From NCBI GenBank assembly GCA_965153455.1, contig OZ234493.1:20760213-20824212 (forward strand): DNA of 64,000 bases. Reading direction: 5' to 3'. A model generated the notes under the pieces. That model made no database searches and was not told the DNA's origin. It saw nothing but the letters and a program-made list of their open reading frames with translations. Positions within the stretch are counted from its first letter, which is position 1; each line of letters starts with the position of its first letter. The DNA is from Sphagnum compactum. Its lineage: Eukaryota. The position numbers were made by a program, and so were the translations under genes. This document shows, piece by piece, positions 5,502 through 63,568 of this stretch.

Positions 5502-5539
5502 TAGGGTTTGACGCTAGGGTTTGAAGAACGCTAGGGTTT
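5502..5539. promoter_or_regulatory. Three telo-boxes (TAGGGTTT) in the short divergent region between CRR6 and SF3B5
   Basis: TAGGGTTT at 5502-5509, 5515-5522 and 5532-5539; telo-boxes are common in plant housekeeping/RNA-processing promoters. Confidence 0.6.
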
Positions 5540-5684
5540 GCTTGTTGCTTTGAGTTTTGCCCTCGCTCTTTTTGTCTTTCCTTCGCGTTGAGGTTGTTGT
5601 TATTGTTGTTGTTGTTGCGGCTCGTCGATTTCCCTGCTACACCACACCAGCAGTGCTTGTTAGGCTTCGCGTAGTCTCGCCACC

Positions 5685-6949: not shown

Positions 6950-8134
6950 GTGAACTCCACCTTAGTTCAGCTGAGTTTTCAGTGGACCAGTTGGCATCGT
7001 AGTAAAGAATTGCTCAAACTTAACTACTGAGTGTAATACCTTTGTTCAGATGTTTCAAACTTTCTATATATAGTGCTCCATCAGTGTTTCAACAATCAGA
7101 CATCTTGTTGCAGCAAAATCCTTTGTTCCTGGCAAAATGTAAGCTTCTAGAGACCTTTTTGTATCATGTCTTCTTTTTGAGCATGGGGACCTCTGATGAA
7201 TGTCTCATGGATACACTGTAAGGTTGTTACACTCTACATTCGTAAATCCAAAATTCACTTCTTTGAGATTGTTCAGCTACTCTTGTGTGGCTGTATTTCT
7301 CTTTCAACTCTGAGGTACCGTGCAAATCAGGACAGGTTCAATGAGAAGAATTCTTGATGCTGATTTTTATGCAGACCCTAAAGAACTAGTGTAGGGGAGT
7401 AACTAAGACTCAACTGTGTAGCCAAAATCACTGCAATTATGCACAAAATCTGTTTGCTAACCTAGTACCACAGTTCCTGGTTTGAAGAAGAATTTAGAAT
7501 GGGACATGCAGGGTTTGATAGGGCATCTAATTCTAGTATCTTGGTGGTTCCTGCATTGTACTTGTCTGCTTCATAATCCAGCAGGCAAAAGTTATGATGA
7601 AACTAAACATTTGGACATCAGGAGGCATATTTTGGAGGGGCGCAAAGGGGGGGGGGGGTGTTAACAAGAGACTCTGCTGTGTACTGAGTAGCAAATGTGA
7701 CCTTATCTCCTTCCCATTGCATTTGACAATAAAATGTGGGCTTCCATGGAAGTTCAACTATACAAAATCATTAAGGCTCAAGTCAAAATTGCTGACAATC
7801 TGCAGTACTGAAGAATTTCTTTACAAGTAGCAATAATAATTAGACATAATTGAGAGATCAATGAACCTCAGACTTGACAGTCAACCATGCTGCTAGGCTA
7901 TGAACTCTTGAAATTGAAGCAAAACCAAACTCTTCTCTTTGACAAGAAGCAAACCCCACCATCCTCAGTTGTGCAATTCTATCTTCCATGCCTCAATTTA
8001 CCCAATTCCAAACTTCCAAGATCATCCCTTGAAAACAACAAAGTTGTTCGTACCCAGTGATGGAAAAAAGGTGGTCATGATTCCCCACTGTCTGGGATAC
8101 TTGCAGATGAGGAAACACACCACAATTTTCAAGC

Positions 8135-9637: not shown

Positions 9638-10343
9638 TTCCAGAAGAAAAAAAATAGCAGGAAGAAGAACAGTTGCGGAGACTCTTCTTCTTCCTTAGTT
9701 CATGACCGATCCCAGTGCTGCTTAAGTTGCAAAACAGAAATGTGCAACAGATAAGCGCCTGCTTCTCGGTTGCAAAAAACACAAGCAAACGATCCAGAAA
9801 CACTGTCCAAAGGCTTGAAACTTCCAAAAACAAAACGCTACGTTACCAATGCATGAAACAAAAAATTGTCTGCAAAGCAGTAATTGGTGGAGCAAGCAAT
9901 CTTCAAATCAATAATGCTAGAAGCAGAATGCATGAAATCGATTATGAGGGGAAAAAAAAAAAAGAAGTGCCCGAGTAGAGAGAGACAGAGAGAGAAAAAG
10001 ATGCATGAACACAACAAACAAAAAAAGAGTGTGTAGAGAGTTAAAAGAGGTGCATAGAAAGAAACTTGTGAAGAAGGAGATGGAAACCCTAAACCTAGAA
10101 ACCACACACTACTAGTGACGATCAATTATTGATGAAAAAAAATGGATTGATTTTGTGAAAATTAATTGTCATTTGAATGATGAAAATATTAGATGACATT
10201 GCATGTAACTTGAATTGGATTTGAATTGAATTGAAATTTTATTTAAATATAATATAATATAATATATTGAATTTAAATTCAATCAATTCAATTCAACATT
10301 TGAATTAAGATTCAATTGAAAAAAAAAAGGGATGCAATTGATT

Positions 10344-16107: not shown

Positions 16108-17845
16108 ATGTTGATCAGAGTAAGGAGCAGAGATGGATTGGAGCGTGTAACCGTGGAAGCGAATGCAACAGTCAAAGAGTTGCAATCTGCGATAGCGGAA
16201 ACCTTGAACGTTCCTGTGTCACAACAATTGTTGTCCAGAAATCGAGCGTTATTGCTTGCCAAAGGACCCGACAGAGACGCGTCTTTCACTGATATGAAGA
16301 ATTTGGATGCCAGTCTATTGTCTCTGGGACTCGGCCACGGAGCTGTGGTATACCTTGTGTACAGTGGGGAGAGAGTTGTTGCCGGACCGCCTGTAACGCC
16401 ACACGGGACTTTCGGGAAGAAGATGACTATGGATGATCTCATTGCACGTCAAACTCGGATCGAGCGACAAGAGAAGCCGCATTGCAGTTCCTTGTCATTG
16501 GACAGGGAAGCGGCTGACTCATTCCAGCACTATGTGCATCAGAGCCTTGCATTCTCAGTCAAGAGAGGAGGATTCATGTACGGTTCAGTGAATGAAGCAG
16601 GTGAAGTCTCTGTGGAATTCATCTATGAGCCTCCACAGCAAGGTTCTGAAGACAGTCTCCTTCTCATGAGAGATATGGAGGAGGAGAAGCATGCAGATAT
16701 CATTGCGGCAGGGTTAGGGTTACGCAAAGTTGGCTTCATCTTCACCCAAACGGTCAGCCAAACCAAAAGGGATTATACACTCTCTAGCATTGAGATCCGG
16801 CAGGCAGCACAGCTTCATGTTGAGTCTGGATTTGAGTGTTGGGCCACTGCCATAGTCAAGCTTGAAGTGAATGATGAAGGTGGCACCGATGTGCATTTTG
16901 AGGCATTTCAATTGAGTGATCAGTGCGTGAAATTGTATAAGGAGGGCTGGTTCGTTGAGGATTGTCCTGACCTTGACCCCAAACTTTCCCGTATGGCTAA
17001 AGATGTGGTGATTTTAAGCAAGGATACGCGGGATGTTGACAATGATTTCTTCCTTGTGCTTGTCAAGATCCTTGACCATGAGGTTCAGTACTTTCCTTTC
17101 CAATGCTGTTCCTTTCCTCTTTTCCATCACTCTCTATATCTTCCTTCTTATCTTGCTCCTTTCTAAACTTGGTTCAGAGTGCAGCATCAAGGTGGGTCGT
17201 AGAGAGAAAATTCTTAATTGTCAGTGAAGTCTTTCTCTATGAGTTGCAGAAAGTGTAGTTGTTTTCCAATCATAAGGGTATCCTTGCTTCTTTTGGATGC
17301 TTCAGCAACATTGTAGTAGCTCTTCACCTTGTAAATACAGTAGCAAAGGCCCATCTTGAATCTCAAATCTGGGCGGATGATGCCCTTTCAGTTTCTGCTG
17401 AAAATCTGGAAAGAGGGTGCCAGTTTCAATTGGCAAGCAATCATCCCCTAGATGGCAATCTCTCACTAAAACCAGGTTTTGTTAGACCCTCAGGAATGGT
17501 TGAAGATTTCTTGTTGTACAGAAGGCAGGGTTTGGAATTGTATTTTCAAATGGCTAATTACTGAAGTTGGTGAACTGTGGATCTGTTCAGGGTCCATTGT
17601 CATGCACATTTCCAGTTGAGAACCGTGAGTCATTTTCAAGTCTCCAAGCACTGAAGGCTCATCTGGAGCGCACCAGGAATAAGCCATATGTAAAACGGAT
17701 TGCAGACTTCCACATCCTGCTCTTGTTGTCTAACTACTTGGATGTAAATACAGACATACCTCAACTAATGGAGTGCATTCGAGTTCAAGGCCCTGTACCA
17801 GATGGGTACCAGCTTATCATTGAATCTCTTGCAAGTCATTTCTAA
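16108..17845 (+). CDS. NPL4: NPL4 family protein (CDC48/p97-UFD1 cofactor); exons 16108-17082 and 17591-17845
   Basis: UBL N-terminus MLIRVRSRDGLERV, FGKKMTMDDLIARQTRIERQE, RGGFMYG, FIYEPPQQG, VGFIFT, FEAFQLSDQC, GPLSCTFPVENR, IADFHILL, GYQLII. Confidence 0.95.
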
Positions 17846-23069: not shown

Positions 23070-23564
23070 CTAGGTTGCATTCCTTGTGAAGAATTCAGCA
23101 TTCTGTTTCCATGCCTCTCCGTTGTTGTAAATTTCCTTCTTCCAAATGGGTACCGAAGCTTTAATTTCATCGATCACAAATTGACAAGCTTTGAGCGCAT
23201 CTTGCCGATGTATGGACGAGACAGCGATGAAGACGCTTTCCTGGCCAATGGTTACAACGCCGGTTCTGTGCGCCACCGCCATGCGCTTCAAATCCCATTG
23301 CTCTCTCGCCGCTTGACAGATCCTCCTCAGCTCGCGGTAGGCCATGGACTCATGTGCTTCGTAGCGGAGTTCCAAGACTTCCTGTCCTTGGAACGTGACT
23401 CTGGTGGTACCGCTGAAAGTGGCGATGGCACCAGCACTGGAATCCCGAACGGCATCGATGTACCGCATGATGTCTAGAGGGTTCTCCTTGATCTCTACGA
23501 CATCTTCCACACCCTCTTCTTGTTCTTCTTCTACTGTACGTATTTTCCCGTCTGCCGATGCCAT
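23070..23564 (-). CDS. CNX6: Molybdopterin synthase catalytic (large) subunit MoaE/MOCS2B, intronless
   Basis: GAIATFSGTTR, ELRYEAH, AVAHRTG, SVFIAVSSIHR, IDEIKASVPIWKKE motifs; first ATG at 23564. Confidence 0.95.
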   Translation of the reverse strand: MASADGKIRTVEEEQEEGVEDVVEIKENPLDIMRYIDAVRDSSAGAIATFSGTTRVTFQGQEVLELRYEAHESMAYRELRRICQAAREQWDLKRMAVAHRTGVVTIGQESVFIAVSSIHRQDALKACQFVIDEIKASVPIWKKEIYNNGEAWKQNAEFFTRNAT

Positions 23565-23826
23565 CACCACTAAAACCCTCACCCTCCTCCTCTTCCTCTT
23601 ATGGCATACAGAAACCTTCTTGCCTCGCCGAGGAGAAAAACCCTAACCACCCTCCTCTTGTCAAATTCAGAAACCCTTTTTCTCTATTTGGGGAGAGAAA
23701 CTCCAATCACCCTCGTCTTCCGGTCGCATGCAGAGATCCTCAACCTGTTCAGAGACTGACTCGGTTTTCCTTGTGAGGTCCGAGCCTATGGCGAACCTTG
23801 CAGAAATTCTCAGGCGCTCTTGCGAG

Positions 23827-34845: not shown

Positions 34846-35919
34846 GAATCTCAAATTATCAAAAGTATTTGAGAATCCACACCTCGAGATTTTATCCCAA
34901 AAACCAAATAGCCCAAACCATGTTCACATTTGAATCAATTTTGTACTAAAACACAATTAACTATGCTAACACAACTTAACAATAAACTAATTATGACCTA
35001 ACCAAAATAGCTAAACTAAGACTCCTAACAACATCTTGGCTTAGTTCGGGCTGAAATAATATATAGAAATACATATAACTTTTTTTTTACACAATACTAG
35101 TGGTCCAAAAAAAAAACATCAAGCACCCAAGAAAAATAAAATTAACTGGAATATTTTTAATTGAAGGAGACAATAATGATGGGGAATACTGGTCATAAAA
35201 CTCTAAAAGAGTACTTGAATGAAATGCCAAAACTGGGTATAACAAGTAGCTCATGGCATTTAATGGCTCTGCCCTTTTCTTAAATGACATCCATAAGGAT
35301 GATAAAATTTCAACATACTAAATTGGAAACACATGGTGGTTAGCATCAAGTGTGTATTTGTTTTCAATTTTGTAGTGTAGCAACAATGGCAAGCCTCCCC
35401 AAACATATTTCAACTTAATTGCTACTAGTCACAATCAATTATTTTAAAATTTTCCTATATTTTCATATATTTATGTCAATGTCAAATTTAATTTAAATTA
35501 ATATACATTTCATGGACATGAAAATACACATGTTATTTTATTTTTTTAATATCCATGTTGGTGGACAGGAAAAAAGAATGAGGTAATTATAAAATGGAGG
35601 TAGTTATTAGAAAAGGTGGGAGATAGTTATTATGAAAGTTGATAAAAAAATTAGGTTATTAAATAGTTATAAAAGAAATAATTATGAAATAAGTAGGCTT
35701 GAAAATGAGATAGTTATTTCTGAATAGTTTTTGACATGGTCAAGGGATGACCATACGACCAAAATGGTCATGTAGAAAAGACATACGAAACTTTTTGCAA
35801 AGAACCCCATATAAACCAGTTCCTACGTCATTGGAATAATCATTTGACAACTTGTGTTTTTGAAGAAAAAAATGAATATTTACCAAAAATTTGAGTTGGT
35901 GTCACACCTTTTGGCGATT

Positions 35920-37720
35920 CTTGAGGGTCATCTCCATGCCACTCATGAGTTCCACTTATGTACGTCATAAAAGAGATGTTTACAAATGTAATAAAATGGG
36001 CCTCCGCATATGTCATAAGAAGTTTCTTCAGGTTTTGACAACTGAATGTTCTTGCATTCTTTCTTGGTCTTTTATAACAAATTGAAGGATCCAAAGTCAT
36101 GGTGGTGATTGATCAAAATTCTTTAGAACCCAAAAAAGAAGAAGAAAAGCCACCATTATTTTGTTTGTACTACAATTCTGTAGTTGACTGAAATATCCCC
36201 CTTCTTACCTTGTGTGAGTGAGGCTTAAGGCGGAGCAGAGTTCCAGAGACAAAATTGACCAAACAAAAATAAAATGAAAGATGAAAAAAAAACACACACA
36301 CTCTTTTGTTGACAAAATTGCTGACACCCAATGCAACCAAATAAAAGAATTGAATTCCATAGAGACTTTCAAATGAATGACAATCGCCACATCAACGACA
36401 ATTAGCCATACTTTCCATCACTTTTGGTGGGGTGTTTGTTGCATGAGAACTCTTTCACCTCCCACTCCACTTGTTTGTTGAAGCATTGGGCGACAAACAG
36501 CCCAACAACCCATAACAAGATGTAGGAAGAATAATGTTAAAAAATCTCTTCAGCTTTAGATTTTTTTTTCTTTAAAGAAACAAATTGGATAAGTATATCT
36601 GGATTCTTATGTGCATACGTGTGCTTACGTGGTTTTGTACATCCATATGTCGAATTGGAATCAAAAAAAGCACCAAAGGTATTAAATAAGTATAAATTGT
36701 TCCCAACGTGCATGTTGTTCAACATATAAACCGACATCAGAGGTTTTCTTCCATGATTCAAAACACCAAAACCAAACCTAGTCAAAGTCAACATTGTAAT
36801 CAACACAAAGTTCCCAATTCAAAGATTAAAAACGTTCAAACCAATCCTTTTTCATAGAGTGACATTGTGTTAAACAAACACCCAATTCAAGTGTAACAAC
36901 ACCAAAACCACACCTACTCAAAGAGGCGCATCCTTTGCAACAAACACCCAGTTCGAGATTAATGACACCAAAACCACCCCAACTCAAAGAGAGACATCCT
37001 TTGCAACAAACACCCAAACGCCCAACTCAAGAGTAATGACACCAAAACCAACCCTACTAGATCAGGGACATCGTTTTCAACAAACACCCAACTCAAGATT
37101 AAGGACACAAAACCACCCGTACTCAAAGAAGGCTATCATTTGCAACAGAACACCCACACACCCAACTCAAGAGTAACAACACCAATGCATGTTTTCTATG
37201 AATAAAAAACACATTCAAAGTCCAACTTGAAAGCCAGGTAAACCAGATAAATGACTAAGTAGGCTAACAAAATCCTCCACCCACAATTTAGCAAACCCAT
37301 ATGAAGCTGTATTCTACAAGAGTTGCTTAGAAAGGAAATTTTCACCCAAAAACTGAGAAAACCTGCCCTCTTAAATTCTTATCCCAAAACAGCTAACTCA
37401 CAGAGCCATGGCATGTCTGGATATCGATGAAATGGGTCACTTCACAAGAGAGTTTATGCCTTGCATACATACAATCTTTACAAACATTTGAAATTCTGGA
37501 AAGATGTAGCCACTGGGACCCTTCTCTTCTTTGTGAATAACAGGAAATGGGTTTGTTGTTCAGGCATTCGAAAACTGCATTACAGAAAGAAGATATGATT
37601 TTGACTCTCAAATCCTGAATTCTTCCACACAGAACTAACCCAACGCAAAATGATTTCCTAATCCACCACCAGCCACACTAATAATAATAATAATAATAAT
37701 AATTTCCCTTTGTTTTCTCC
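35920..37720 (+). repeat. Duplicated TGA 3' flank (paralog of ~59120-61210), including a ~65-bp tandem minisatellite
   Basis: Collinear diverged match to 59120-60750 and 61145-61210; AAACACCCAACTCAAGA...CCAAAACC units at 36865-37185 and 60070-60310. Confidence 0.85.
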
Positions 37721-37731
37721 AGCTTCCTTCA

Positions 37732-39000
37732 TTATCCCTTCGCTTGGGGTCGTGCAGACCACAGGGAACTTAGTGCTCGCAAACGTGCATAGTAATCAGC
37801 CACTGCAAGAAGAGCTCGCGCTGATTGACGGGTTGTGAAGATCCGAAGCATTTGTTGCAATGTCTGCTGCCGCAAATCATCCGCCTACCATTAATGCCAG
37901 GCCCGCCCCAAGCTCAACAGAGTCATTCACAGTAGAAAGAAAAGAAGGGTTCCAAAAGAGAAGAACCAAAAGAATGATCTATTTCCTTCAAAGAGAACCA
38001 TGAGCTGCAAAGGGATTGTTATATACCTACCTGTCGCACGAAAGACTCAACTGTGCCCAGTTTACCCATCGCCATCTGGCCCATGTAATTCGCTACGTTG
38101 GGTGACGAATCCACCAAGCTGCCTGCAATCGTATCTGCAAGCGATTGCTGTAAAGCTTCCATTGCTTGTGAAATCGCATCCTCTGCCTGTTGTAATGACT
38201 GTTGCAAGTTACGGATTCCGAGTAGTTGTTCCTCTGTGAGTGGCTCGACTTGTGGTATCACAATCTGCACACTCCCAAAAAAAAACCCAAAACTCATTTT
38301 GCTTTCTGAAAAAGAAAATGATATGCGTAATTTTTGTTGCAGCTACTTACAGTTGAAAAAACGAAATAGGTAGCTACTTGCTTTTCTTCCACCTCGCTTG
38401 ATGGTCAGGCTACCACATGTAAGACAAGACAAAATCTGGAGCTGGAAAAGAAAATCAGTACTAAATTATGCTTGTAATCAGCAGCATTCAACAACCATTT
38501 AAATTTACATTTCCCGTAATGCACCTTTAAGGCTTCAGAAGGTCCAAGGCCACCCATCCACATAAAGCAGCGCTCAGCTAGTGTGACCCACGTTCCTGAT
38601 ACCAGTTGGAATACATCCGTTTTAGCAGCGACAGCCTTGAGGCGGAATAAATAAATCATTATAATGTGCCGTTCCCACCTCTACGAGCAAGCGTAGCTCG
38701 TTGTCAGGTACATGGGCACGCAGTGCTGCGCGGAGCTCACACATGTACCGATGGTAGTCTTTCACCCATGTTCTACAGTCCATATCGAAAGTAGCCGCTC
38801 CTGCCCACATAACCCATCACAAAATACTTGAGATTTGTATTGCGTGCCTTGTCTGTCACCATTCATATAAGGGAAAATGTACATTTCACTAACACAACTG
38901 CCCAAAAAACACAGGAATCTTATGCAACAGATCATTAAAAAGTGAGTAACTCAAACGTACCTGGATTCAATGCGACAACAACATTCACCCCATTTGTGGC
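37732..39000 (-). pseudogene. 5'-truncated duplicate of the TGA gene lacking bZIP exons; exons (partial ~39000-38961), 38800-38525, 38264-38031, 37884-37732
   Basis: Exon-by-exon homology to 62545-61245. The 38800-38525 exon is 276 nt versus 272 (TTTA duplication, frameshift); next exon has a 6-nt deletion (MAMAM>MAM); stop shifted (ARPQAKG*). Confidence 0.88.
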
Positions 39001-41143: not shown

Positions 41144-42670
41144 ATGAATCCTACATTTTAAAATAAAACTCAGAGAAGAATCTTATCTAAATGTATTCAT
41201 AATTTAAAATATTGTACAATACTTGTTGAAGAAAACCATTAGTCATAATTTAATATAGCTTTAGGTGGGTTCAAGTCCTCGAGAAGAACTTGTTTGTTCA
41301 TCTATGTACCAATATCATCATCCTCGACATCCTCAACATCGTCCTCCTTCCCAACAATGGGCCTTTGCGATGGTTCCGCATAATAGATATCAGGTCATGG
41401 TGATACATCATTGGAAAGTAATTGCATCCTATGGTGGACCAATTTTGGCAAGTTTAGAGTCCCTTTTTTCCCTCCTTTTTGAATTCCCACCTACTTGGCC
41501 TAATAATAAAATCCCATTTGATCACATATTAATTTTAATCCTAGTCGTTCATTTGTGTTGGGAAAGTTGGGCGCCCAATTCAAATTTTTACTACTACGTG
41601 CATAGATGACACAAACATGTGGTCACCACTTTTCCTACATTTGTACACTACATGAATCTATCTAATGCACAATGGACAAGCTTTTGTCATGATTGTTGTT
41701 CTTACTAAGGTCTTCTAGCTTCGCATCTTCCAGCATTGCAAGAGGAGGTTGTCAAAGATTTTCACTATTCTTGTTGTGTAGGTATTTTATTATTGTTTTT
41801 ATTGTAGGAAACATTGTGTGTTCTTGTAAAGTCAAATAGGAAGGAAAGCATGGTCATCACGTTGGGTTTGCTGCACCATTATACAACAAAGTGTCAGAAC
41901 TAAAAGATGGTCGATCTTTATTCACAAAAGATTTTGTTGAAAAGTATGATCTATGTTGTGAAGGTTTAAGTCCCAAACACATCAAGATTCGAAGGGATTT
42001 GACTACAGAAGATGTCACAAAGGTTTTTGGTCATGTTGTGAATCAAAATGACTATAGTTATCTTCATTATGAAGACCTTGTTTTGATAGCAAAGATTGAA
42101 TCTTTGTTTATGATTGTTCATCAAACGACATGTGTTCCTACTACACGATTCATCTCATTTGGAATGGCAAGAGTCATTGTTCTAAACAGAAGTTAGGAAA
42201 AAAGATGAATTGGGCAGCGTATGTTGAATGGACGAACGTTGAACAACAAGGCACAAGTCATCCTTTCAAGCACAAAGACAAATTATTTACTTAGCGATTA
42301 TGAAGGCGGTAATAGCGAAGATGGTATGGAACACGAAGACTTTCAAATTCAAGCAATTTGAAGAGGAAAGTGCAAACCTGTTTTTCTTGAAAATATTGTG
42401 TTGTCAAGTTGTTTCTAGTTTTACAACATTTCATTTTGTTGAACTTGGGGTTGATTCTATTTATTGAAGTTGCTTGGTTGGTATAGTTTATTGAACTTAA
42501 GGTTGAGGTAACACAAAAATTTGCTTAAGACAGGTTTGCAAATTTCTTTTTTACTTACTACTACATTTCAATTTGTTAAACTTAGGGCTAGTTGAATTGA
42601 TACCCAATTGTTGGGTTGTGGTATGTTTTACAAAGCAGGTGTTCTAGAATAGCTTTTGCAATATGCAAAG

Positions 42671-42826
42671 TGTCATGGCCTAGGATATTTTGGGACTAGT
42701 ATGGCTCAGGGTTATAAAAGGAGATAGTCTGGGGAACAACCCTTTAGCAGATCAACACCAGTTGATGGATCAATAAAGCTTGTCTTGTCTTGTAATTCTC
42801 CACTTGTTTGTAGTCGGTCCATAACA
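42671..42826 (+). repeat. 5' LTR (156 bp)
   Basis: TGTCATGG...CATAACA; TATAAAA at 42713; AATAAA at ~42772; differs from 48668-48823 at only two positions by eye. Confidence 0.95.
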
Positions 42827-42969
42827 GTTTGATCTACTCCTTCTTCTTGTTTGTTTGTTTTGTTGTTTCAGTAAGTAGCTAGAGGTATATTGGAGTGAAA
42901 CTTGGAAAGGTTATAGAAGACTATAGGACGCTTCTACTCTCAAAGTTTCAAAAGAAAAGGATATGTTTT

Positions 42970-43775
42970 GAGAGAGATCCAAGCATCTGAAGTTTCAAGT
43001 GCAAATCTGGTTTTTTGGTCATATCTCCTTTGTGTAAGCTTTTCTGGTTCTGTAACTTTGTGATCTTATAGATCATATAGGAATATATGTGTGAGAGAAA
43101 TTTCATGTCATTTGGACTTGTATTGAGAGAGATTCAAGCATCTGAAGTTTCAAGTGCAGATCTGGTTTTTTGGTCATATCTCCTTTGTGTAAGCTTTTTT
43201 GGGTCTGTAACTTTGTGATCTTATAGATCATATAGGAATATATGTGTGAGAGAAATTTCATGTCATTTGGACTTGTATTGAGAGAGATCCAAGCATCTGA
43301 AGTTTCAAATGCAGATCTGGTTTTTTGGTCATATCTCCTTTGTGTAAGCTTTTTTGGGTCTGTAACTTTGTGATCTTATAGATCATATAGGAATATATGT
43401 GTGAGAGAAGTTTCATGTCATTTGGACTTGTATTGAGAGAGATCCAAGCATCTGAAGTTTCAAGTGCAGATCTGGTTTTTTGGTCATATCTCCTTTGTGT
43501 AAGCTTTGTTGGGTCTGTAACTTTGTGATCTTATAGATCATATAGGAATATATGTGTGAGAGAAATTTCATGTCATTTGGACTTGTATTGAGAGAGATCC
43601 AAGCATCTGAAGTTTCAAGTGCAGATCTGGTTTTTTGGTCATATCTCCTTTGTTTAAGTTTCTTTCGGTCTGTAACTTTGTGATCTTATAGATCATATAG
43701 GAATATATGTGTGAGAGAAATTTCATGTCATTTGGACTTGTATTGAGAGAGATCCAAGCATCTGAAGTTTCAAGT
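42970..43775 (+). repeat. 155-bp tandem array (5 full units plus a partial unit) in the retrotransposon 5' UTR
   Basis: GAGAGAGAT(C/T)CAAGCATCTGAAG starts at 42970, 43125, 43280, 43435, 43590 and 43745. Confidence 0.95.
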
Positions 43776-43813
43776 TTGAAGATTGAAAGCGCAAAAGTGT
43801 GAGAACTACCACC

Positions 43814-44788
43814 ATGGACAACTCAGAATCCAACATCGATCTCACTCAAATCCTCGCCGCCCTTCAACACCTTCAACAAGAAAATGCCGTGCTTAGAGAC
43901 TCGGTGACCCGCCTACAGAATCAGCCACCACCTCCTGCCCCAGTACTTCTTGCTCTTGCAATGGCCGCCCAAGAACCCAAGATCAGTCTGCCAGAAAAGT
44001 TTGATGGAACGCGCCTCAAATTTCGAGGCTTTGTCAGCCAGGTACGCCTGATCATGCAACTACACCCCCGTCGTTATTTTGATGACACCACTCGTGTAGG
44101 ATTCGTTGGAACCCTACTCACTGGGACAGCTGCAGCATGGTTTGCTCCCATCCTGGAAACATCATCCCCTCTTCTACAAGATTTCAACGCCTTTATGGCG
44201 GAATTTGAAGCAGTATTTGGGGACAGTGATAAGGCCAGGACTTCAGCCAACAAGCTGCGTCGCCTCCAGCAAGGGACACGTTCGGCCATCGTCTACGCTT
44301 CAGAATTCAGGCAGCTTGCCTGTGACGTCAATTGGGGAGAAGCTGCCTTGATTGATCAGTTTCGCTGTGGGCTTCGTGATGATGTTCAAGATCTTTTGTT
44401 GACACTCGCAGACCCTTCTTCCTTCAGTGAAGCCATCACCCAGGCAATTCGGTGCGATAATCGTCTGTTCGAACGTCGCCAGGAAAAGAAAGTCACCTCC
44501 AATGCCCAGCTTTGGAACAGTCGGCCTATTACGCTCCCCTTAGTTCCCCAAACAACACCAGTTGCCCGACCTGCCTCTTTTGGACCTGCTCCGATGCAGA
44601 TCGACACAGCTAAGTTTAAATCTTTGACAGAAGCCGAGAAACTTCGCCGAAGGACAAACAATCTATGTCTTTACTGTGGCAACCCAGGGCATATAGCTCG
44701 TCAATGCCCTCAAAAGCTTGTCAAACTTCAGGTACAAGCTGTGGAAACTCCCCAGGAGTTGGAAAACAAGAACATCCAGTCACAGTAG
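43814..44788 (+). CDS. gag: Gag (capsid + CCHC zinc knuckle), intact
   Basis: [10 protein letters not shown]...[48 protein letters not shown]10/sushi-like. Confidence 0.93.
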
Positions 44789-47700
44789 GAGCCGTGCGAC
44801 TGGATCTCACCCAACACCACCTTTGCAAAGGCTCCTGTTCCGCTGTTGGTCCCAGTCCCAGTTTCACTCAGTATGTGGACATCATTCGTATTCCAGAAGA
44901 CATACCACAAGTGTCAGCTTTGGTGGACTCCGGCGCCACCTCTTCTTTCATCGACCAAACATTTGTCGTCCAACACAACATCCCTGTGGTCAAGAAGTCA
45001 ACCCCTGTTCCGGTAGAGGTTATTGATGGGAGAACCATTGCTTCTGGTGCAATCACACACGAGACAACCCCTCTAGAACTCTGTATCGGCAAGCACACGG
45101 AGAAGATTATTCTCAACATCATTTCCACCCCTCACCATCCCATCATCCTTGGTCTGCCTTGGCTAGAAGCACACAACCCTATCATTGATTGGCGATCTAG
45201 AACCCTCACCTTCAGCGCACAACGATGCACCTCTCAAGAACCCCACGCTCAGAAAAACACTTTGTCCAGTCCTGCCAAGAACCCTGTGGTCGAGAACCCA
45301 AAGAGGGTCGGAACCAATTCCAGTTTTATCAAGTCTGTTATGTCAAATCCTGCAGTCAAGAACCCCCGATTGGTCAGAACGAAACCTTGTCCTGTCCAGA
45401 ATCTTGTCAAGAATTATGCCCAAAAAACCAACCCTGTCCAGATCTTCGTTGATAGAGCTGTCCCTTTCTATCGGGCTGCTAAGAATCTTCAAGTCTTCGC
45501 CATCCATGTCAACCCAGCCAACACCACAAACCCCCAATCGGAACCAACACCTGTCAAACTTCCCAAGAAGTACAAGGACTTTGTTGATGTTTTTGAAAAG
45601 ATTAATGCTGATCAGCTCCCCGCCCATAGTCCATATGACTGCCCGATTGATCTAGAAGAAGGACAGTCACCACCCTTTGGTCCTATCTATGGCCTATCGG
45701 AACCGAAACTCCAAGCCCTGCGTGATTACCTTACTGAAAATCTTGCCAAGGGGTTCATTCAGCATTCCAAGTCTCCAGCCGGCGCCCCAATTTTGTTTGT
45801 CAAGAAGAAGGATGGCTCCCTTCGACTTTGTGTGGATTATCGTGGACTCAACAAGATAACCAAAAAGAATCGATATCCTTTGCCCTTGATTTCAGGTCTC
45901 TTAGATCGACTACGTACCAGGAAGATCTTCACCAAGCTTGACCTCCGTGGAGCCTACAACTTACTCAGGATTCGCCCTGGTGATGAATGGAAGACAGCTT
46001 TCCGCACACGCTATGGCCACTTCGAATACACGGTCATGCCCTTTGGCCTCACCAATGCACCCGTAGTCTTTTAGCATCTGATGAATGATATCTTCCGGGA
46101 TTACATGGACGAATTTGTCGTGGTCTATTTGGATGACATTTTAATCTTTTCCAAGGACCAGGAAACCCACGACAAACATGTACGATTGGTGCTTGCGACG
46201 CTGCGGGAGCATGGCTTATACGCCAAGTTGGAAAAATGTGAATTCGACAAATCTTCAGTGGCGTTCCTCGGCTACGTGATCTCTCCAGATGGCATTTTCA
46301 TGGACAAGTCAAAGGTCGAGACCATTCAGTGTTGGGCTACTCCATCCTCGGTCAAGGACGTTCAACGCTTCCTAGGGTTTGCCAACTTCTATCGTCGGTT
46401 TATCAAAGGCTATTCCAAGATCACAACACCGTTAATAACCCTGACTTGCAAAGACAAGCCCTTCTCGTGGAATCCAACGGCCCAGGTTGCTTTTGATACT
46501 CTCAAGATGGCATTCACCTCTGCACCCATCCTGATACATCCCGATCCTACCAAGCCATTCATTGTGGAAACGGACGCTTCAGATTTTGCCTTGGGAGCTA
46601 TTCTATCTCAATTTGGAATAGATGGGTTGTTCCATCCAGTTGCTTTCTATTCACGGAAGTTAACCAGTGCCGAAATCAACTACCAGGTCTACGATAAGGA
46701 ACTCCTGGCAATCATCACGGCATTCGAGCAGTGGAGACCGTATCTTGCCGGAGCTCAACATCGAGTCCAAGTTCTGACAAATCACAAGAATCTCCTTTAT
46801 TTCACAACTACTCGGACCTGAAATCGTCGCCAGGCACGCTGGTCTATCTTCCTAGCTGATTTCGACTTTGAGATTCAGTATCAACCCGGCACCCAGCAAG
46901 GGAAAGCTGACGCGCTATCTCGTCGTTCAGAATATGAACTTCGAGCGGGGGATGAGGCCTACGGCCAGCAGAACCAGACTTTACTCAACCCCAAGCAATT
47001 TCGAGTTGCAGCAACAATCAGCACCCTCCCAGACTCATACCTTGTCAGGGACATCAAGATAGCAACTGAAGAAGACACCTGGGCTACCAACATCAAGAAG
47101 GAACTCCAGGAACGACCAAGGAACCCAAATCGTGATGACTTGGATCAATTTGAGCAGCAAGACGGACTTCTCCTTCGAAATAACCTGATTTATGTACCCG
47201 AAGGACCTATACGCCTAAAAATCCTGAGGGAATGCCACGACAACACCCTGGCAGGTCACTTTGGAATGGCACGAACTCACGAACTAGTGTCAAGGACTTA
47301 CTGGTGGCCCAAAATGAACAAGATGCTACGGGAGTATGTCAAGTCTTGTGATACATGTGCTCGATCCAAGGCTCCCAGGCATCGCCCGTTTGGACTCCTA
47401 CAGCCTCTGTCGATTCCTAGTCGACCTTGGGGATCTATTGCAATGGACTTCATCACGGACCTCCCTACTGTCAGAACCAAGAATTCAATACTGGTTGTGG
47501 TCGATCGACTCACCAAAATGGCCCATTTCACCCCTTGTTCCAAGTCAATCACGGCAGAAGAGACAACTCAGTTAATTCTGGACGGGATCGTCCGACTGCA
47601 TGGACTCCCCGAGGAAATTGTGTCCGACAGAGGTCCTCAGTTTGCATCCAAGTTCTGGCATCGTCTATTCGAGCTTCTTGGAGTTGACATTCGGCTATCT

Positions 47701-48519
47701 TCAACTTTCCACCCTGAGACAGATGGACAAACCGAACGGACAAACCAGACACTCGAGCAATACCTTCGCTGCACTGTGAACTACCAACAGGACGACTGGC
47801 TGGACCTACTATCTCAAGCAGAGTTTGCTTATAATAACACAACACATGCATCGACCGGGATCAGTCCATTCTTTGCCAATTACGATTTTCATCCTAGGTT
47901 CAGCCTTGAAATTCCTGGAGACTCCGTAAACCCCTCGGCTGAAGAAAGGGCCACGAGGCTTGGACAGGTTCAACAGAACCTTATGGCAGAACTCAAGCTA
48001 ACACAGGAGTGGCAAAAGAAGCAAGCAGACCGCCGACGCAAGGACCATCCAAACTTCAAGGTTGGAGACAAGGTCTGGCTTCTCAGAAAGAACATTGCTA
48101 CCACTCGCCCATGTGCCAAGTTGGATTACAAGCGCCTCGGACCTTTCAAAATCGCCAAATTGGTTGGTCTAGTGGCTTGCCAGTTGGAGCTTCCACCCCA
48201 GTTCAAAATCCACAATGTTTTCCATGTCTCCCTGCTTGAGCCCTATCATGAAAACCCGATCCCAGAACGTCATCAAGAACCCCCAGCTCCAGTCGAAATT
48301 GAAGGCCAAGAAGAGTTTGAAGTTCAGGAGGTCTTGGACTCCAAGAAGATTCGTGGAAAGCTCCTGTACCTTGTCTTTTGGCGAGGTTATCCTCCTTCTG
48401 AAGCTACTTGGGAGCCTGCTGGAAACCTAGTTCATGCCCAAGACTTAGTTAATCGGTTTCACCAACGATATCCTAACAAACCGGCTCCATCTAGAAGATG
48501 TCGCTTGAGGAGAGGATAA
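44761..48519 (+). pseudogene. pol: Pol (protease, RT, RNase H, integrase, chromodomain) in the -1 frame, with two in-frame stops (46072-46074 TAG, 46819-46821 TGA)
   Basis: [37 protein letters not shown] zinc finger, SDRGPQF, ETDGQTERTNQ, LGPFKI, chromodomain EFEVQEVLD...FWRGYPPSEATWEP; all ORF pieces share one frame. Confidence 0.93.
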
Positions 48520-48823
48520 TGTCATGGCCTAGGATATTTTGGGATACTTTTGGCAATGTCATGTCCTAGGATATTTTGGGATACTTTTGGCAATGTCATG
48601 TCCTAGGATATTTTGGGATACTTTTGGCAATATCATGGCCTAGGATATTTTTGGATACTTTTGGCAATATCATGGCCTAGGATATTTTGGGACTAGTATG
48701 GCTCAGGGTTATAAAAGGAGATAGTTTGGGGAACAACCCTTTAGCAGATCAACACCAGTTGATGGATCAATAAAGCTTGTCTTGTCTTGTAATTCTCCAC
48801 TTGTTTGTAGTCGGTCCATAACA
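48520..48823 (+). repeat. 3' LTR (304 bp) with four additional 37-bp U3 units
   Basis: TGTCATGGCCTAGGATATTTTGGGATACTTTTGGCAA-like units at 48520, 48557, 48594 and 48631, then the 156-bp core at 48668. Confidence 0.93.
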
Positions 48824-51800
48824 CAAAGTATTCACAGAAGAAGTTGAAGGAGGTGGAAGCTTCCATTTTTGTGGTGCAGTAAGGTAAAAAAAATAATGAA
48901 GATGTCAAATGTGTGGGCTCATAGCCAAATGGAAGACCGCAATAATATGCTACTTGAAGCCAAACATGGATTAGCTACATGCATTGCAAAATTAGAATGT
49001 TTGGGTGCAAATGAGTTTGTAGAGGTGAAAGTAGAAGCGCAAAGGCAATAGATGGTCAAAGGGGTGTGGTGCAAATGTTTAAGACACTTGCCAATGCATG
49101 GAATGCAGAGTATGAACATGTGTCAAAATTGTTAGATGGAGAAGCAAGCAAAATTCACAAAATAAAAAAATAAATTGAATTTTGCATAACAGCATCAAAA
49201 TGGAGTGGGAACACTTGTCAAAAAGTTCCAGAATGGTTTGTTGAAATCATCATTGAACAGCCCTATTCCTTCCCAACTTGCAACCACAATTGATGAAATT
49301 GATCTCTAATATTACCTTTGGGTAGGTGGTTGTTCATTTTGTGGTGTTTCCTTTGGGCTAGTTTGGGTAGGGAAGTTAGCATCTTGCAAACCCTTGTGTG
49401 CAATAGTCCACTTCAACACATCCACAAAATGTGTAGTGTGTATAAAAAAACCAAGGCCTACTTATGCAAAGATTGGAGGTCAAAAACACATTGACATCTA
49501 TGGAGTGGCCAGCAAGCCAGGTGCATTTGATTCTCACCAACTTGTACATTACAATAGAAATTTTTCAATGTCAGATGATAGCAATCTCTACTTGTCACTC
49601 GATGGAGATTGAATTGAAGTTGCATTCAAGTTAGGTCCTTTTTTGGTGAAATTTGGGTCATTAAGGTGTATAATAGTCACTATAAAAGTCAAATGACTTT
49701 GTTGTTGTCAATGTGTCCAGTGTGTAAATAATGTTTGTCTTGTTATGTTGTGTCCATACACTTACATATACTTACACTTTGCATGTACTAATGTGTTGCT
49801 GGATTGATTTCAGAGTGCTTTCATAGTCTATATGAGTACACAATTTTTTTTAGACATTGGTTTTTGACTTCTTTTACATATGCAAGTATTGAGTCTAAAT
49901 ATATTAATTTGTTGCTAGATGGATTGTAGAGTGTTGTGACAGTTTGTGTGGGTACATTATCTCTATAGATAGTGAGATTGACTTATTGTATATGTATGCT
50001 TATGGAGTTTGGATACACTAATGTGTTGATGGATGTACTTCAAAAGGCTTGAAAGTCTATGTGAGTACATAACATTTACACACATAATGACTATTGACTT
50101 GATGTATATATTATTTATGGAGACTAAATGTACTTTTGTGTCAACAGATGGACTGCAAAGTGTTTTCATCATCTATGTGAATACATTAGTCATAATATAT
50201 ATATATTCAAGTGACTTGTATATGTATGCTTATGGAGTTTGAATGCAGTATTGTTCCAATGGATGGATTACAGAATGTTTTCAGAGTCCATGTGAATACA
50301 TATTCTCCACATGTAATTATTCTTGATATATTATTCACATGTTTAAGGAGTTTGAATGGAGTTTCAACAGGTCTTTAATCCTTAATTGTACATAAAACAA
50401 CATGTATAACTTGTACTTCTTGTAACTTAAGTGTGTAATTTGTAACTTTTATTGTATCCATGAATTGCATATTAACTCTGCTTAAGTTTGATGATCTGTG
50501 TTCTTATTTTGTGCAAGATTTTCTTCCATAGATTAGTAAGAATGTCCTTCAATCTCAATCACCAATACACATATGCTAGGGAGAAAAGTTATACAAATTC
50601 AGCATCCAAGTGCAAGCAAGACTTACATTATAGATGTCAGTCCAAATGTTAGTAGCATTCATGTGAATGCTTTGCCCAATAAAGGGGCAACAAATTCCAA
50701 GGTCAATACTCCAAGTAAACTAAAAGTTGGCCAAGAGACAACATGTTATGTTCAAAAGGAGGAAACTAAGCAATGTGGAAGAATTTCCAATGCAAAGAAA
50801 GTTTTGTTGAAACCTCTTAAAGAATTTGATAATAGAACCAATAGATAAGATGTTGATGGAGATGGTGAACCTGAATGGTCAAAATCAAGTGAGTATGAAG
50901 AGGAGGAGGAGGACAATCTAGAAGGTAATGAAGATGTTCATAAACTAGCTTTTTAAAAAAGAAAAGGTTACGTTGTTTGCAAGCAAATGACTTCTTCAAA
51001 AGGCAAACAGAGGATTGAAAAATTGGGATCACTATCAAAGAAGGGACCCAACCCTAAGAAGCCCATCAATTAGAGGGTTTCTAATGCAAGGACTACTCGA
51101 GCTACACATATTCACACTTGAAGCAACAAAGGAAATAAGTCTTACGACTGAAAAATTGTAAATTGAAACTTGTTCATTGCAAAATTGAGTTTGGTTGGTC
51201 ACATAAACCTGCCACCACCGCCTGAGTAGGTGGTTACAAAGTAAGGTGCACCAATTCCAATAGATAAATAGTCCATAAAAAGTCCATTCAGTAGTGTTAA
51301 AATTGTAGTCTACTATGATATCATTGTGTAAATGGGGGACTAAATGTGGTTAAGGAGATAATAAAGATTATGTGAATAGAAGCCCAACTACATAACTTTT
51401 TAACATGAATGTTAAAGAAAAAAAAGTTTGAAATCCATCAAAAAATGAATATGATATGGACTTTTGAAAATAAGGTCCATTTTAAGACATTTAAAAGTTC
51501 ATATTTTCTTTCGGGTTAAAGTTTTTCTAACAATTTTTTTACATCTAGGTCACCTTTTCTTTAATATATCATATATTGAGTCCCTATAAAATAACATAAA
51601 CAAAATTCATAAATAAAAATTTATTTGTATTAAACCACATACAAAAGACCAATCGATATTTTTCTACTTCAAAACTTCAATACTATATATTTGAAGAATA
51701 CATGTTATATTTTTTTATGTAGATGTTTTCTTATTCAAGTTGAAAATCTTAATTCAATGGAAAATTTGGCATAATGATGATTTTATGGCATGTTAATGAC

Positions 51801-58500: not shown

Positions 58501-61244
58501 TTATCAAGGCATGTTATACATAAGCAAGCAAACCAATTGGGGACTTGACACAAATTGTGGTTTTAACGAACTATTTACATTCTCAAAAATTAAGGGGCTT
58601 AGGATGAAGTGGTAACTTTTTTTTGAAAAATAGGAAGGAAAAGCATAACAAATTACTAGATCAGTTAGCCTAATGGTCAAACTTTTTTTTCTTTTAACCT
58701 AATGAATTGAAAAATACGTGCATGGTTTGAATGAACAAACTTCTTAAAGAAAGCCCATCTCTCACTCGCTCAAGTTTGAGACTCAATGTTTTTGTTTTCA
58801 ATTTTTGATTTCACAAAAGTGGCAATTTTTTTGGGCTGAAAAGACACGTTTTATGCCAAAGGAAAAGAAAGTTTTAAAATTGGGAAAACATGAGCTTCGC
58901 AATGTTTTTTTGCAAGAATTCACAAAAATTGCAAAATTCTGCCACAAAAAATAGAATAAAAATCCTTGAAGAAGATTTAAACTTTAAAATAAACTTAGAC
59001 TTACATGGAGAGTGCAGAAGACAAGTGTGATTCTCGAGGGTGATTTGTAGACCACCCACAAGTTTTTACTTCATTCTTTTCACTTAAAACTTTCATGGAG
59101 AGTGCAAAATTAAGAAAAGTGTGATTCTTGAGGGTGATTCTATGCCACCCACAAGTTCACCTCATGTACGTCATAAAGAGATGTTTGCATACGTAATAAA
59201 ATGGGCTTTGGCATACGTCATAAGAAGTTTCTTCAGTTTTTGATGATCACATGTGCTTTCTTTCTTTGTCCTTTATGAGAAATGAAAGGATTGAAAGTCA
59301 TGGTGGCTCAAAATTCTTTAGAACCCACAAAAGAAAAAAGAAAAGTCGACATTATTTTATTATTTTATAGTACCAAAAAAAAAAATAGTAGTTTGTAGTT
59401 GACTGAAATATCACCCTTCTTACCTTGTGTGAGTGAGCCTTCATGAGGAAGAGAGTTAGTTCCAGAGACAAAATTGACAAATGAAAAAAAATGAAAGATG
59501 AAAACACACACACAAGCACTTGTTAACAAAATTGTTGACACTCAATGAAACCAAATCTATATAATGAAATTGCATCAAGAATTTCAAATGAATGTCAATC
59601 CCCACATCAACAACAATTAGCCATACTTTCCATCACTTTTGGTGGGGTGTGTGTGCATGAGAACTCCTTCCCCTCCCACTCCACTTTTTTTAAGAAAGCA
59701 TTGGGCAACAAACAGCCCAACAATCCATACACATAAGAAGAATAATGTTAAAAAATCTCTTCACCTTTAGATTTATTTTTTTCTTGAAAGAAACAAATTG
59801 GATAAGTATCTGGATTCTTATGTGCATACATGTGCTTACGTGTGTTGTACATCCGTATGGCCAATTGGAATGAAAAAAGCACCAAAGGTATTAAATAAGT
59901 ATAAATTGTTCCAAACATGCAGGTTGTTCAACAAACCAACCGACATCAAAGATAACTTCTATGATTCAAAACACCAAAACTGACCCTACTCAAACATCAA
60001 CATTGTAATCAACACACACCCAATTCAAGACATAAAACATTCAAACCACTCTTTCTCAAAGAGGGACATTGTGTTAAACAAACACCCAACTCAAGAGTAA
60101 CAACACCAAAACCAACCCTACTACTCAAAGAGGGACATCCTTTGCAACAAACACCCAACTCAAGATTAATGACTCCAAAACCAACCCTACTTGGAGAGGG
60201 ACATTGTCTTCAACAAACACCCAACTCAAGATTAACGACACCAAAACCACCCATACTCAAAGGGGACATCATTTGCAACAAACACCCATACGCCCAACTC
60301 AAGATTAACAATATCAATGCATCAAAACACATGCAAAGTTGACAATACTTGAAAGTCAGGTAAAAAAACCAGGTAAACGACTAAGTAGGCTAACAAGAAC
60401 CCGCACCCACAATTCAGCAAACCCATATGAAGCTGTAGTCTAAAAGAGTTGCTTAAAAAGGATTTTTTTCACTCAATAATTGGGAAAACCTGCCCTCTAA
60501 AATTCTTATCCCAAAACAGCTAACTCACACAAGCCATGGCATGTATGCATATCGATTAAATGGGTCACTTTACAAGAGAGTTTTATGCCTTGCATACATA
60601 CAATCTTTACAAACATTTGAAGTTCTCAAAAGATGTCACCACCCACTCCCTTCTCTTCTTTATGAATTGCAGGAAATGGGTTTGTTGGTCAGGCATTGGA
60701 ACACTGCATTACAGAAAGAAGATATGATTCTGACTCTCAAATCCTAACCCTAAACTCCCCCTCTTCAAAGAGAGGGAAACCGACTCCACTCTACTCTACT
60801 CTACTAGCATCTTTTCTAATCATTCCCATCTAGTCCCAACTGCCCATTTTATGGTAAAGTTTTCACTCACAACCTGTTCTGAAGACCTACTTTTTTTCTT
60901 TGCAATTTATACAAGAGACTAAAAAACATGTGACTACAAGCTGCTGCCTTCTGTGCCCTAATTACAATCGCCATGTCCACCCTCACAATCCTTCAACATC
61001 ATGCCGCTCCCATCAATTACAGTGGTGTTGTGGTGGTAATATTTAGTCGTGCACTTTGTAAAAAACAGGGGAAGCGAATCTGGATTGTTCACTGCTGTGG
61101 CTTTCGAATCCTTCGACACGCCATTCTTTTTTATAAAATTGAAAAACAGAACTAACCCAAAGCAAATTGATTTCATAATCCACCACCAGCCACACTAATA
61201 ATAAATTCCCCCCTTTCTTTTTCCTCCTGCTTCCTTCATTATCC

Positions 61245-63568
61245 CTACTCTCGGGGTCGTGCAGACCACAGGGAGCTGAGTGCTCGCAAACGCGCAAAGT
61301 AATCACCCATTGCAAGAAGACCTCGCGCTGCTTGACGGGTTGTCAAGATCCGATGCATTTGTTGCAAAGCCTGCTGCCGCAAATTATCCGCCTACCATCA
61401 TGGCGAGCCCCACCCCAAGCTCAACAGAGTCATTCACAGTAGGAAGAAAAGAAGGGGAACAAAAGAGAGAAGAGCCAAAACAAGGATCTCTTTCCTTCAA
61501 GAGAACCATGAACTGCAAAGGGCATAAAACAATGGATCTATTTCCTTCAAGAGAACCATGAGCTGCAAAGGGCAATTTCATTGATTGTTATATAACTACC
61601 TGTCGCACAAAAGACTCAAGTGTGCCCAGTTTACCCATCGCCATTGCCATCTGGCCCATGTAATTTGCCACATTGGGTGATGAGCCCAACAAGCCGCCAG
61701 CAACCGTATCTGCAAGTGATTGCTGTAAAGCTTCCATTCCTTGTGAAAGTGCATCCTCTGCCTGCTGTGATGACTGTTGCAAGTTACAGATTCCAAGTAG
61801 TTGTTGCTCTGTCAATGGCTCAATTTGTGGTATCAAAATCTGCAGACTCCCAAAAAAAAACCCAAAACCCAATTTGCTTTCTGAAAAAATGAAATTGTAT
61901 TATGTAATTTTTGTTACAGCTACTTACAGTTGAAAAAACGAACTAGGTACCTACCTGCTTTTCTTCCACCTTGCTTGGTGGTCAGGCTACGACAAGTAAG
62001 ACAAGACAAAATTTGGAGCTGGAAAAAAATTAGCACTAAATTATGCTTGTAATCAGCAGCATTCAGCAACCATTTTTGAATTTTTTCTTGTAATGCACCT
62101 TGAGGAGTTCAGAAGGTCGAAAGCCACCCATCCACATAAAGCAGCGCTCAGCTGGTGTTCGCCACATTCCTGATACCAGGTGGAACACATCTGCTTTAGC
62201 AGCAACAGCCTTGAGGCGGAAGATATCATCATAATGTGCCATTCCCCCATCTACGAGCAAGCGTAACTCATTGTCAGCCACATGCGCGTGCAATGCTGCA
62301 CGAAGCTCACACATCTGTCGATGTTGCTCTTCCACCCATCTTCCATATTCCATATCGAAAGCAGCCGCTCCTGCCCACATAACCCATCACAAATACTTGA
62401 GATTTATAATGCGCGCCTTGACTGTCGCCATGCATGCAAGGGAAATGTACATTCAATTACACAACTGTGCAAAACACAGGAATCTCATACAAAGATCATA
62501 AAAAGTGGGTAACTCAAATGTACCTGGATTCAATGTGGTGACATTCACACCATTCGTGCCACCACCAGAATGAGGATTCTGATCAATACCATACCCAGCC
62601 CCACCCATGTAAAGACCCTGAAGCCACAAAACCTCCAGGGGTGGCTTTTCTCTTCTCAGACTCAAAAATACCTTGGAAAGAAGGGACTTATGGAAACAAA
62701 TAGGGCATTACTACACCTCCTCCACAGAGTAGAGAATTGTGAAAGATGGAGAAAAACTCACTTGCTGCCGAGCTCTTTGAAGCTCCTGCTCAAGTTGATT
62801 CAACTTGATTCGGCTTGATTCAAGTTGTTGTACATATGCCTAACTCACCCACGAAGAACAACTCCCCATGTTTGTCAATTCCCATAATCTTGATCCATGA
62901 AATGAACACATGATTTTTATTTTTTTCGCTGTGAATTAAGTTTCTGAAAACAACGAATTTCACTGTGTTGTGGTGGAACATGGGAATTGGAAGAAATAAT
63001 AATAGTAATAATAATCACCTTCTTTCGAAGCCGACTTTTGCGTGCAGCTTCACGATTTTGAGCAAGCCGTCTGAGAGCCTGCACACCAAGAACAACATAG
63101 AATTACAAAGAGCTTCAGAAGTGGCTCCATTTCAAACTAGCACACACAAATTACATAACAGATAGCAGAATTCTCAGCTTCCTGCCCCTGTGCATAGAGA
63201 AATGGGAGGGATGGAAAATGTTGATTGCCAAACCTTGGAGTCACCATTCCTTGTTGCTTCCTGGTCAGATGTAGTTGAAACAACTGTTGCACCATGATGT
63301 CCATCATCTAGCTGCAACACAACAATCCAAAAACCAATCAATGGAATGGAAAATAAGCAAGCAAATACTTTTGTGACAGAACCCAATATGGTGAGTGACT
63401 AAATGAATTTGCACAACTTGAAATGACATAATTTTGCAAGAGAAAAGCAGGGAAAAAAAAGAGAAAAAAGGATAGTAGATAGAGAACTTCTCATATTACC
63501 CAGTTGTCTACCTTCGCATCAGCCTCCAAGTCAGTAGAAGTATCTGTTCTAGGACTGTTGTCTGCCAT
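61245..63568 (-). CDS. TGA: TGA-family bZIP transcription factor with DOG1 domain; exons 63568-63512, 63311-63234, 63078-63019, 62839-62762, 62617-62524, 62370-62099, 61839-61600, 61391-61245 (N-terminus may extend upstream)
   Basis: MADNSPRTDTSTD..., ALRRLAQNREAARKSRLRKK|AYVQQLESSRIKLNQLEQELQRARQQ, AFDMEYGRW, KADVFHLVSGMWRTPAERCFMWMGGFRPSELLK, ADNLRQQ...RLRALSSLWSARPRE*; all exon phases are consistent. Confidence 0.97.

Follow-up and report, generated by a model that had tools for sequence, protein, structure and literature searches.

Priming of reverse transcription by an element's own RNA is proven for Tf1 of Schizosaccharomyces pombe, in which an 11-nt self-primer located at the mRNA's 5' end anneals to the PBS (primer-binding site) and is freed by an RNase H cut between nt 11 and 12, an account in PMC7175516 with which the original prediction agrees. 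Tf1 also requires a three-duplex 'pretzel' (bioRxiv 10.1101/2022.12.06.519325). For Tcn1 of Cryptococcus neoformans, Tj1 of S. japonicus and sushi of vertebrates, self-priming has been proposed from like sequence evidence (PMC7175516, PMC4600332); these elements have other hosts and primer sequences, and we liken them to the family described here by description only, the Cryptococcus element having in addition a gag-pol frameshift (bioRxiv 10.1101/2022.12.06.519325). Among plants, the text of PMC6317226 describes the Tcn1 elements of mosses and club-mosses as mostly without a tRNA PBS, predicts self-priming for 83% of 1,500 of them by requiring an LTR complement of 10 bp or more that starts within 0-5 bp of the LTR end, and gives the clade a mean length of 6,357 bp (range 5,466-9,444), 5-bp target duplications and a gag/pol overlap in 60% of classified elements. 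Not every Tcn1 element shows a self-primer, because Selaginella SM-Tcn1 is described as having none (PMC2864245). The text of PMC6317226 further predicts self-priming in 89% of 203 elements of the TAR lineage of plant Ty1/copia (Houba, Osr-1), an unrelated lineage that differs by its copia domain order.

The window analysed here is a stretch of 64,000 nt of Sphagnum compactum, and it carries at 42671-48823 (+) a Ty3/gypsy chromovirus of 6,153 bp with both LTRs, flanked by a 5-bp target duplication and possessing all the expected parts (gag, PR-RT-RH-INT order, C-terminal chromodomain, LTRs and a polypurine tract). Its features, by position in the window, are the following.

42666..42670, +, left copy of the target-site duplication CAAAG (identical five bases at 48824-48828)
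42671..42826, +, 5' LTR, TG...CA, 156 bp, one 37-bp U3 unit (LTR-LTR comparison)
42713..42720, +, TATA box TATAAAAG, conserved; anchors 133 junction sequences of families A and B
42746..42755, +, predicted transcript 5' end and self-primer AGCAGATCAA, 33 nt past the TATA T and preceded by a pyrimidine
42761..42771, +, R arm of the R/U5 stem, GTTGATGGATC (folding)
42772..42777, +, AATAAA, candidate polyadenylation signal
42816..42825, +, U5 arm of the R/U5 stem, GGTCCATAAC (duplex -10.2 kcal/mol, 13/500 shuffles as good)
42827..42828, +, LTR-PBS spacer GT, 2 nt (GT in 109/115 family copies)
42829..42838, +, primer-binding site, TTGATCTACT in the window copy, a minor variant at 42836 (family junction counts)
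42943..43770, +, leader tandem array, about five 155-bp units, end approximate (155-bp steps in element length among copies)
43814..44788, +, gag: Retrotrans_gag, Ty3_capsid, zf-CCHC (domain matches)
44620..48519, +, pol: protease, RT, RNase H, integrase, chromodomain; other frame, overlapping the end of gag
48301..48462, +, chromodomain, aromatic cage positions, group I type (HP1 alignment, E 8.8e-11)
48505..48519, +, polypurine tract (identical in 18/19 two-LTR copies)
48520..48823, +, 3' LTR, 304 bp, five 37-bp U3 units (LTR-LTR comparison)
48824..48828, +, right copy of the target-site duplication CAAAG, matching the left

The insertion is young, because its LTRs show only 2 differences when the 156 nt of the 5' LTR are set beside the final 156 nt of the 3' LTR, and their gap in length, 156 versus 304 bp, is accounted for by the number of 37-bp U3 units, one versus five. 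The window copy is dead: two in-frame stops (46072-46074 and 46819-46821) break pol, and a catalytic position of RNase H is non-acidic; this position is acidic in 23 of 23 other family copies checked, in all of which the acidic positions of both RT and RNase H are kept. Aligned to the HP1 chain 6asz_A, the chromodomain possesses F, W and Y at the aromatic positions that define the cage, a definition that we took from PMC3350952. Among 19 other two-LTR copies, 8 also have LTRs that differ from each other in the number of U3 units, and 4 of these show no further difference in the last 130 nt; the 5' LTR of the window copy is the sole one-unit LTR among 115. Such inequality suggests slippage in reverse transcription or soon after it, or else assembly error. 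The 155-bp leader array likewise differs among elements in unit number, in 155-bp steps, and RNA reads cover it well.

Seeing these structural features together (aromatic-cage chromodomain, moss host, 5-bp duplication, length, gag overlapping pol), we consider membership of the Tcn1 clade very likely. RNA runs with small shares of matching sequence carry moss or plant metagenome labels, and the host genes of the window are of plant type. Compared with the plant Tcn1 clade as far as PMC6317226 and PMC2864245 describe it, the window element is alike in host, cage, duplication, length (~6.2 kb), frames and PBS, with no difference of kind. Its integrase core is 58% identical to a chytrid sequence, 53% to Mucoromycota, 47-48% to other fungi and 46% to frog, compared with 41% for a tRNA-primed family of the same genome and 38-39% for grasses; the closest rows reach 59-63% and mostly carry no species name. 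A 26-row integrase tree, built without a reference Tcn1, PpatensLTR or Tf1 sequence, placed the window's family (family A), a sister family (family B) and a third sub-family together (100/100), beside the chytrid (90/68), with the chytrid and moss rows inside a group of 7 (94/95, just under the starred level); the grass, Closterium and tRNA-primed moss rows grouped elsewhere (82/86), and the backbone of the tree was unresolved.

The original prediction held that the 5' LTR is followed by no TGG of a tRNA-primer site and that a decamer downstream of it is complementary to the likely transcript start, and on re-reading, the coordinates of TATAAAAG, AGCAGATCAA and TTGATCTACT were all correct. The LTR ends in CATAACA (42820-42826), the spacer GT follows, and TTGATCTACT then begins, complementary at 9 of 10 positions to AGCAGATCAA, which lies 33 nt after the TATA box. 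This LTR end is fixed independently of the pairing, by the 3' LTR and by the CAAAG duplication on both sides. In a chance test, we dinucleotide-shuffled the LTR 4,000 times and matched it to target decamers starting 0-5 nt after the LTR, revealing matches of at least 9/10 in 136 shuffles anywhere in the LTR and in 17 within TATA+25 to +40, and full 10/10 matches in 2 anywhere and 0 within that zone. Taken alone, the 9/10 match of the window copy is thus only modestly above chance; its R-U5-PBS fold is no better than that of shuffles (z 0.08), and each of its primer/PBS pairs has a predicted probability of 0.5 or less.

For the wider family, a DNA search of the own genome returned 421 candidates, 40 of which were scored, and LTR- and gag-based searches together with 60 further regions (10 without a family 5' junction) brought the collection to 135 junction records from 115 distinct insertions. 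None of the 115 carries TGG 0-5 nt past the LTR, and hence none has a tRNA 3'-end PBS. The common PBS, which the original prediction had proposed reading from an alignment of copies, is TTGATCTGCT (93/115), which pairs fully with the common LTR decamer; 14 insertions have the window's mismatched TTGATCTACT, and 8 have another single variant. Of the 103 ungapped copies (the 115 without the window copy and 11 gapped or divergent copies), AGCAGATCAA is unchanged in 94, and both sides are perfect, giving 10/10 pairing, in 78, such that the LTR complement set by PMC6317226 is of full length in most of the family and is 9/10 in the window copy itself. The family form folds with z -1.81 (12/200 shuffles as good), natural copies of families A and B have predicted pairing probabilities of 0.75-1.0 per pair, with 0.76-1.0 for the fully pairing family form, and by its position the 10/10 pairing is well above chance.

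Comparison with sister family B, whose gag is ~93% identical to that of family A at the DNA level and whose U5 is ~60 nt longer, revealed that the two arms have changed together. Family B possesses the LTR decamer AGCAGACCAA and the PBS TTGGTCTGCT. We aligned 133 distinct junction sequences from the own genome and a metagenome, 120 from family A and 13 from family B (5 own-genome rows, equal to 4 insertions, and 8 metagenome rows), with anchors in the TATA region, at the LTR end and in the leader tract, and with none in primer or PBS. At primer position 7, 119 of the 120 family-A rows pair T with a PBS A and all 13 family-B rows pair C with a PBS G, a compensatory change found despite the longer U5 of family B, and one that bears out the expectation that the PBS co-varies with the start of R. 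Whatever the number of rows, this covariation is one evolutionary event. The alignment also delimits the duplex. In none of the 133 rows could it be extended by pairing the base immediately 5' of the primer with that immediately 3' of the PBS, so it starts exactly at the A found 33 nt past the TATA T, behind a pyrimidine. An A at this distance is where plant promoter spacing would place the transcript start.

We also sought a more distant family with its 5' LTR for covariation, and none was obtained from gag profile searches or viral contigs. From the gag searches came families A and B together with a tRNA-Met-primed family. Of 20 regions, 7 contained tRNA-Met elements with a pair of LTRs, 5 contained elements of A or B, and 8 gave no usable LTR pair. 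Of the third sub-family, 86% identical in integrase, only a 3' LTR behind a truncated pol was seen (L119:1258-1690; G000:C19, near 4312961), with a different, repeat-rich U3 and a B-type decamer. Two contigs of a viral collection (L331 and L332, 5.8-6.0 kb) possess a gypsy-like pol of 33-35% identity and terminal direct repeats of 123 and 71 nt, and are possibly circular retroelement forms or products of assembly overlap.

Beyond the primer/PBS helix, folding predicts a second element: the R/U5 stem formed by 42761-42771 with 42816-42825, which stacks on the primer/PBS helix in family A and, despite the U5 insertion, in family B. Across four copies, 13, 12, 14 and 3 of 500 shuffles were as good. 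The stem tolerates a change from A-U to G-U (49 versus 71 family-A rows), and across the 133 rows of the junction alignment its changes were one-sided, with no two-sided change seen. We describe the R/U5 stem as a predicted structure, conserved beside the primer/PBS helix. A third duplex of the 'pretzel' kind, between leader and LTR, did not emerge from 24 tests, in that no helix was both significant and common to A and B, tests which a short weak duplex could escape; the best candidate (13/300 shuffles) lies ~16 nt past the PBS in family A only.

Transcription of the family was evaluated in one polyA raw-read run with the same organism label, perhaps from another individual, of which ~12% was read, yielding 386 reads at 85% likeness. 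The family is transcribed and, assuming a standard stranded library, most of its reads are sense. Depth stood at 35-41 in U3, 20-26 in R and 30-58 across U5 and leader, running on through U3, as expected from the overlap of 3'-LTR and 5'-LTR transcripts; these 386 polyA reads showed no pile of starts or ends. The pairing base at 42836 is present in 26 of 30 raw reads, and in three RNA contig sets it accounts for 59%, 76% and 83% of summed depth, figures biased toward the window's letter and drawn from a kind of data which, unlike raw reads, cannot show transcript starts.

Taking these observations together, we consider it highly probable that this moss chromovirus family, of Tcn1 type within the Tf1/sushi group, primes its minus-strand DNA with its own RNA in the manner of Tf1. 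The tRNA-independent self-priming put forward from the window alone is thereby supported, by the absence of TGG in all 115 junctions, the fully pairing PBS in 93 of them and the A/B covariation. Transcription would start at about A42746, and the first 10 nt of the transcript pair with the PBS 2 nt past the LTR, a step shown by the sequence pairing and the one compensatory change, while the R/U5 stem, as predicted by folding and conserved, would stack beside the resulting helix. By analogy with Tf1, the RNase H domain of RT would then cut after about nt 10, freeing a 3'-OH from which RT would copy the spacer, U5 and the remainder of R. The pairing may form within one RNA or between two packaged RNAs. 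Compared with Tf1/Tf2 of S. pombe, the moss family is alike in having a 5'-end self-primer to a PBS beside the 5' LTR, a second duplex that joins the end of U5 to LTR sequence downstream of the primer, and a chromodomain integrase, going by the published descriptions. It differs in primer length (10 nt, or 11 to 13 counting bulged pairs with the GT spacer, versus 11 nt in Tf1), in the third 'pretzel' duplex, which Tf1 has and our tests did not find here, and in its gag and pol, which occupy separate overlapping frames, unlike Tf1/Tf2; the mechanism itself is proven for Tf1 and would apply to the moss family by inference.

The alternative that survives best, though we regard it as improbable, is that the R/PBS duplex, as a conserved RNA structure, serves some other function (packaging, dimerisation or translation control) and that the element uses a different primer or start site. 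Covariation and folding, after all, demonstrate pairing rather than priming, and the lack of a start pile in the RNA reads and of the third Tf1 duplex would suit such a structure. Its placement argues otherwise: the 3' arm lies exactly at the primer position, 2 nt past the LTR end, where 115 of 115 junctions offer no other primer site, and the 5' arm begins at the TATA-predicted start, precisely where pairing stops.

Priming by a host RNA was assessed against tRNA sequences. Full-length tRNA priming is excluded, as judged from the junctions, because TGG is lacking at them across the family. An internal tRNA fragment, of the half-tRNA type found in the copia elements Bryco, Osser and Bianca, or another small host RNA would be a different matter, and here the comparison is with an incomplete set: from 26,565 rough candidates we scored 63 and read 30 loci, giving 47 unique sequences, mostly organellar, among which no nuclear initiator tRNA-Met was identified, an incompleteness that leaves this alternative some room. 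Within that set, the best match inside the PBS decamer region is 7 nt, in line with the expectation that no tRNA would match the PBS well, and an 8-nt match, from a questionable gene call, falls in the pyrimidine tract that follows the PBS. A host primer would also leave unexplained why the A/B change in the PBS is mirrored in the LTR, and the text of PMC6317226 reports half-tRNA priming only in Ty1/copia lineages. On these sequences tRNA-fragment priming is unlikely, and we hold the idea of a host RNA primer of either sort to be very improbable.

As a negative control, we examined 7 LTR elements of the same genome that carry a TGGTATCAGAGC site, which we take to be of tRNA-Met type, and these show at most 5 nt of LTR complement. 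The control elements (L171, L173-L176, L182, L184) constitute a second host gypsy family with ~820-bp LTRs and a long single gag-pol frame. That the complementarity is mere chance, in an element that lost or never had a recognisable PBS, might be entertained for the window copy, with its 9/10 match recurring in shuffled LTRs and its unremarkable fold, but is refuted by the family junction counts and covariation: the family pairs at 10/10, which no shuffle did in the start zone, has undergone a compensatory change, and stands against a control at 5 nt.

We next consider the single mismatch of the window copy, at 42836, which lies in a CHG context, one in which methylated C is often deaminated. 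CHG sites are changed in 3.8% of copies in the LTR and leader and 4.9% in gag, versus 1.2-1.6% for CHH, and 42836 itself is changed in 12 of 103 copies (11.7%), the highest of 13 LTR/leader CHG sites (the 12 others, 39/1,236) and within the tail of single CHG sites in gag (10.8%, 19.4%). Our first family query carried the 42836 variant and thereby enriched variant copies; an early excess of 8/41 shrank to the above value with more copies, and among the 44 copies that came solely from the gag list, only 2 show the change. A special mechanism for the change is not supported, given this shrinkage and the rates that gag CHG sites reach, nor is a single mismatched master element, as no other difference is common to carriers at p<0.02. 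Carriers occur in both sub-lineages, and their nearest-neighbour clustering is borderline (p 0.075). The change was also seen as two transversions. At the remaining nine PBS positions, the transversion rate matches background (0.0022 vs 0.0016-0.0028).

The suggestion that the mismatch may be post-insertion decay fares well in one respect and less well in another. Recurrent decay is the likelier origin, ahead of origin during copying, given the CHG site and the recurrent change, and the mismatch of the window copy is most likely deamination of a methylated C in CHG context after insertion. Carriers are not older, however (median rare differences 0.0044 versus 0.0063 in others, p 0.74), and this equality of age counts against simple decay, which would predict older carriers. 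A doubtful reading, with a small chance of being right, combines two-helix self-priming (primer/PBS and R/U5, with no leader duplex) with an error-prone, self-templated PBS, in which the 42836 change would be made in reverse transcription, by mis-copying near the primer's capped end before second strand transfer. For this reading speak the high rate of change at 42836, the youth of the copies that carry the change, and its two transversions. Were it true, the 42836 change would record where the primer ends, and the family would be well suited to demonstrating directly, for the first time, that a plant element self-primes.

Self-priming by the Tf1-like route is not new for such elements, being a published prediction for moss Tcn1 chromoviruses (PMC6317226); the surprise implied in the original prediction was misplaced, as self-priming is there the predicted norm. 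New beside the text of that paper, whose element tables may list comparable primers, are a family in another moss, the compensatory change and the R/U5 stem, and the value added lies in the compensatory base-pair change, the duplex boundary at the predicted start and the conserved R/U5 stem. Within the open-access literature, consulted mostly as listings, we found no experimental demonstration of self-priming in a plant, and a young, multi-copy, transcribed family is a place to test the prediction. Self-priming elements would presumably also escape host control exerted through tRNA fragments.

Several minor observations accompany these results. Two family copies (L055, L056; G000:C1, near 16950000) face each other within 6 kb, one with an opposite-direction LTR, and represent a nested or inverted insertion. 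A dense cluster of 13 tRNA genes (L081, L085; G000:C563), among them one with the apparent anticodon TCA, resembles an organellar contig from another organism within the assembly, in which TGA is perhaps read as Trp. Elsewhere in the window, a 3-kb direct repeat pair (about 35900-39000 and 59100-62600, 23 kb apart, ~82% identity, with internal short repeats) is an old duplication or another repeat family, and host genes or exons lie at 8135-9694 (-, F-box with KIB1-4 propeller), 16048-17166 (+, NPL4 family) and 23070-23642 (-, MoaE).
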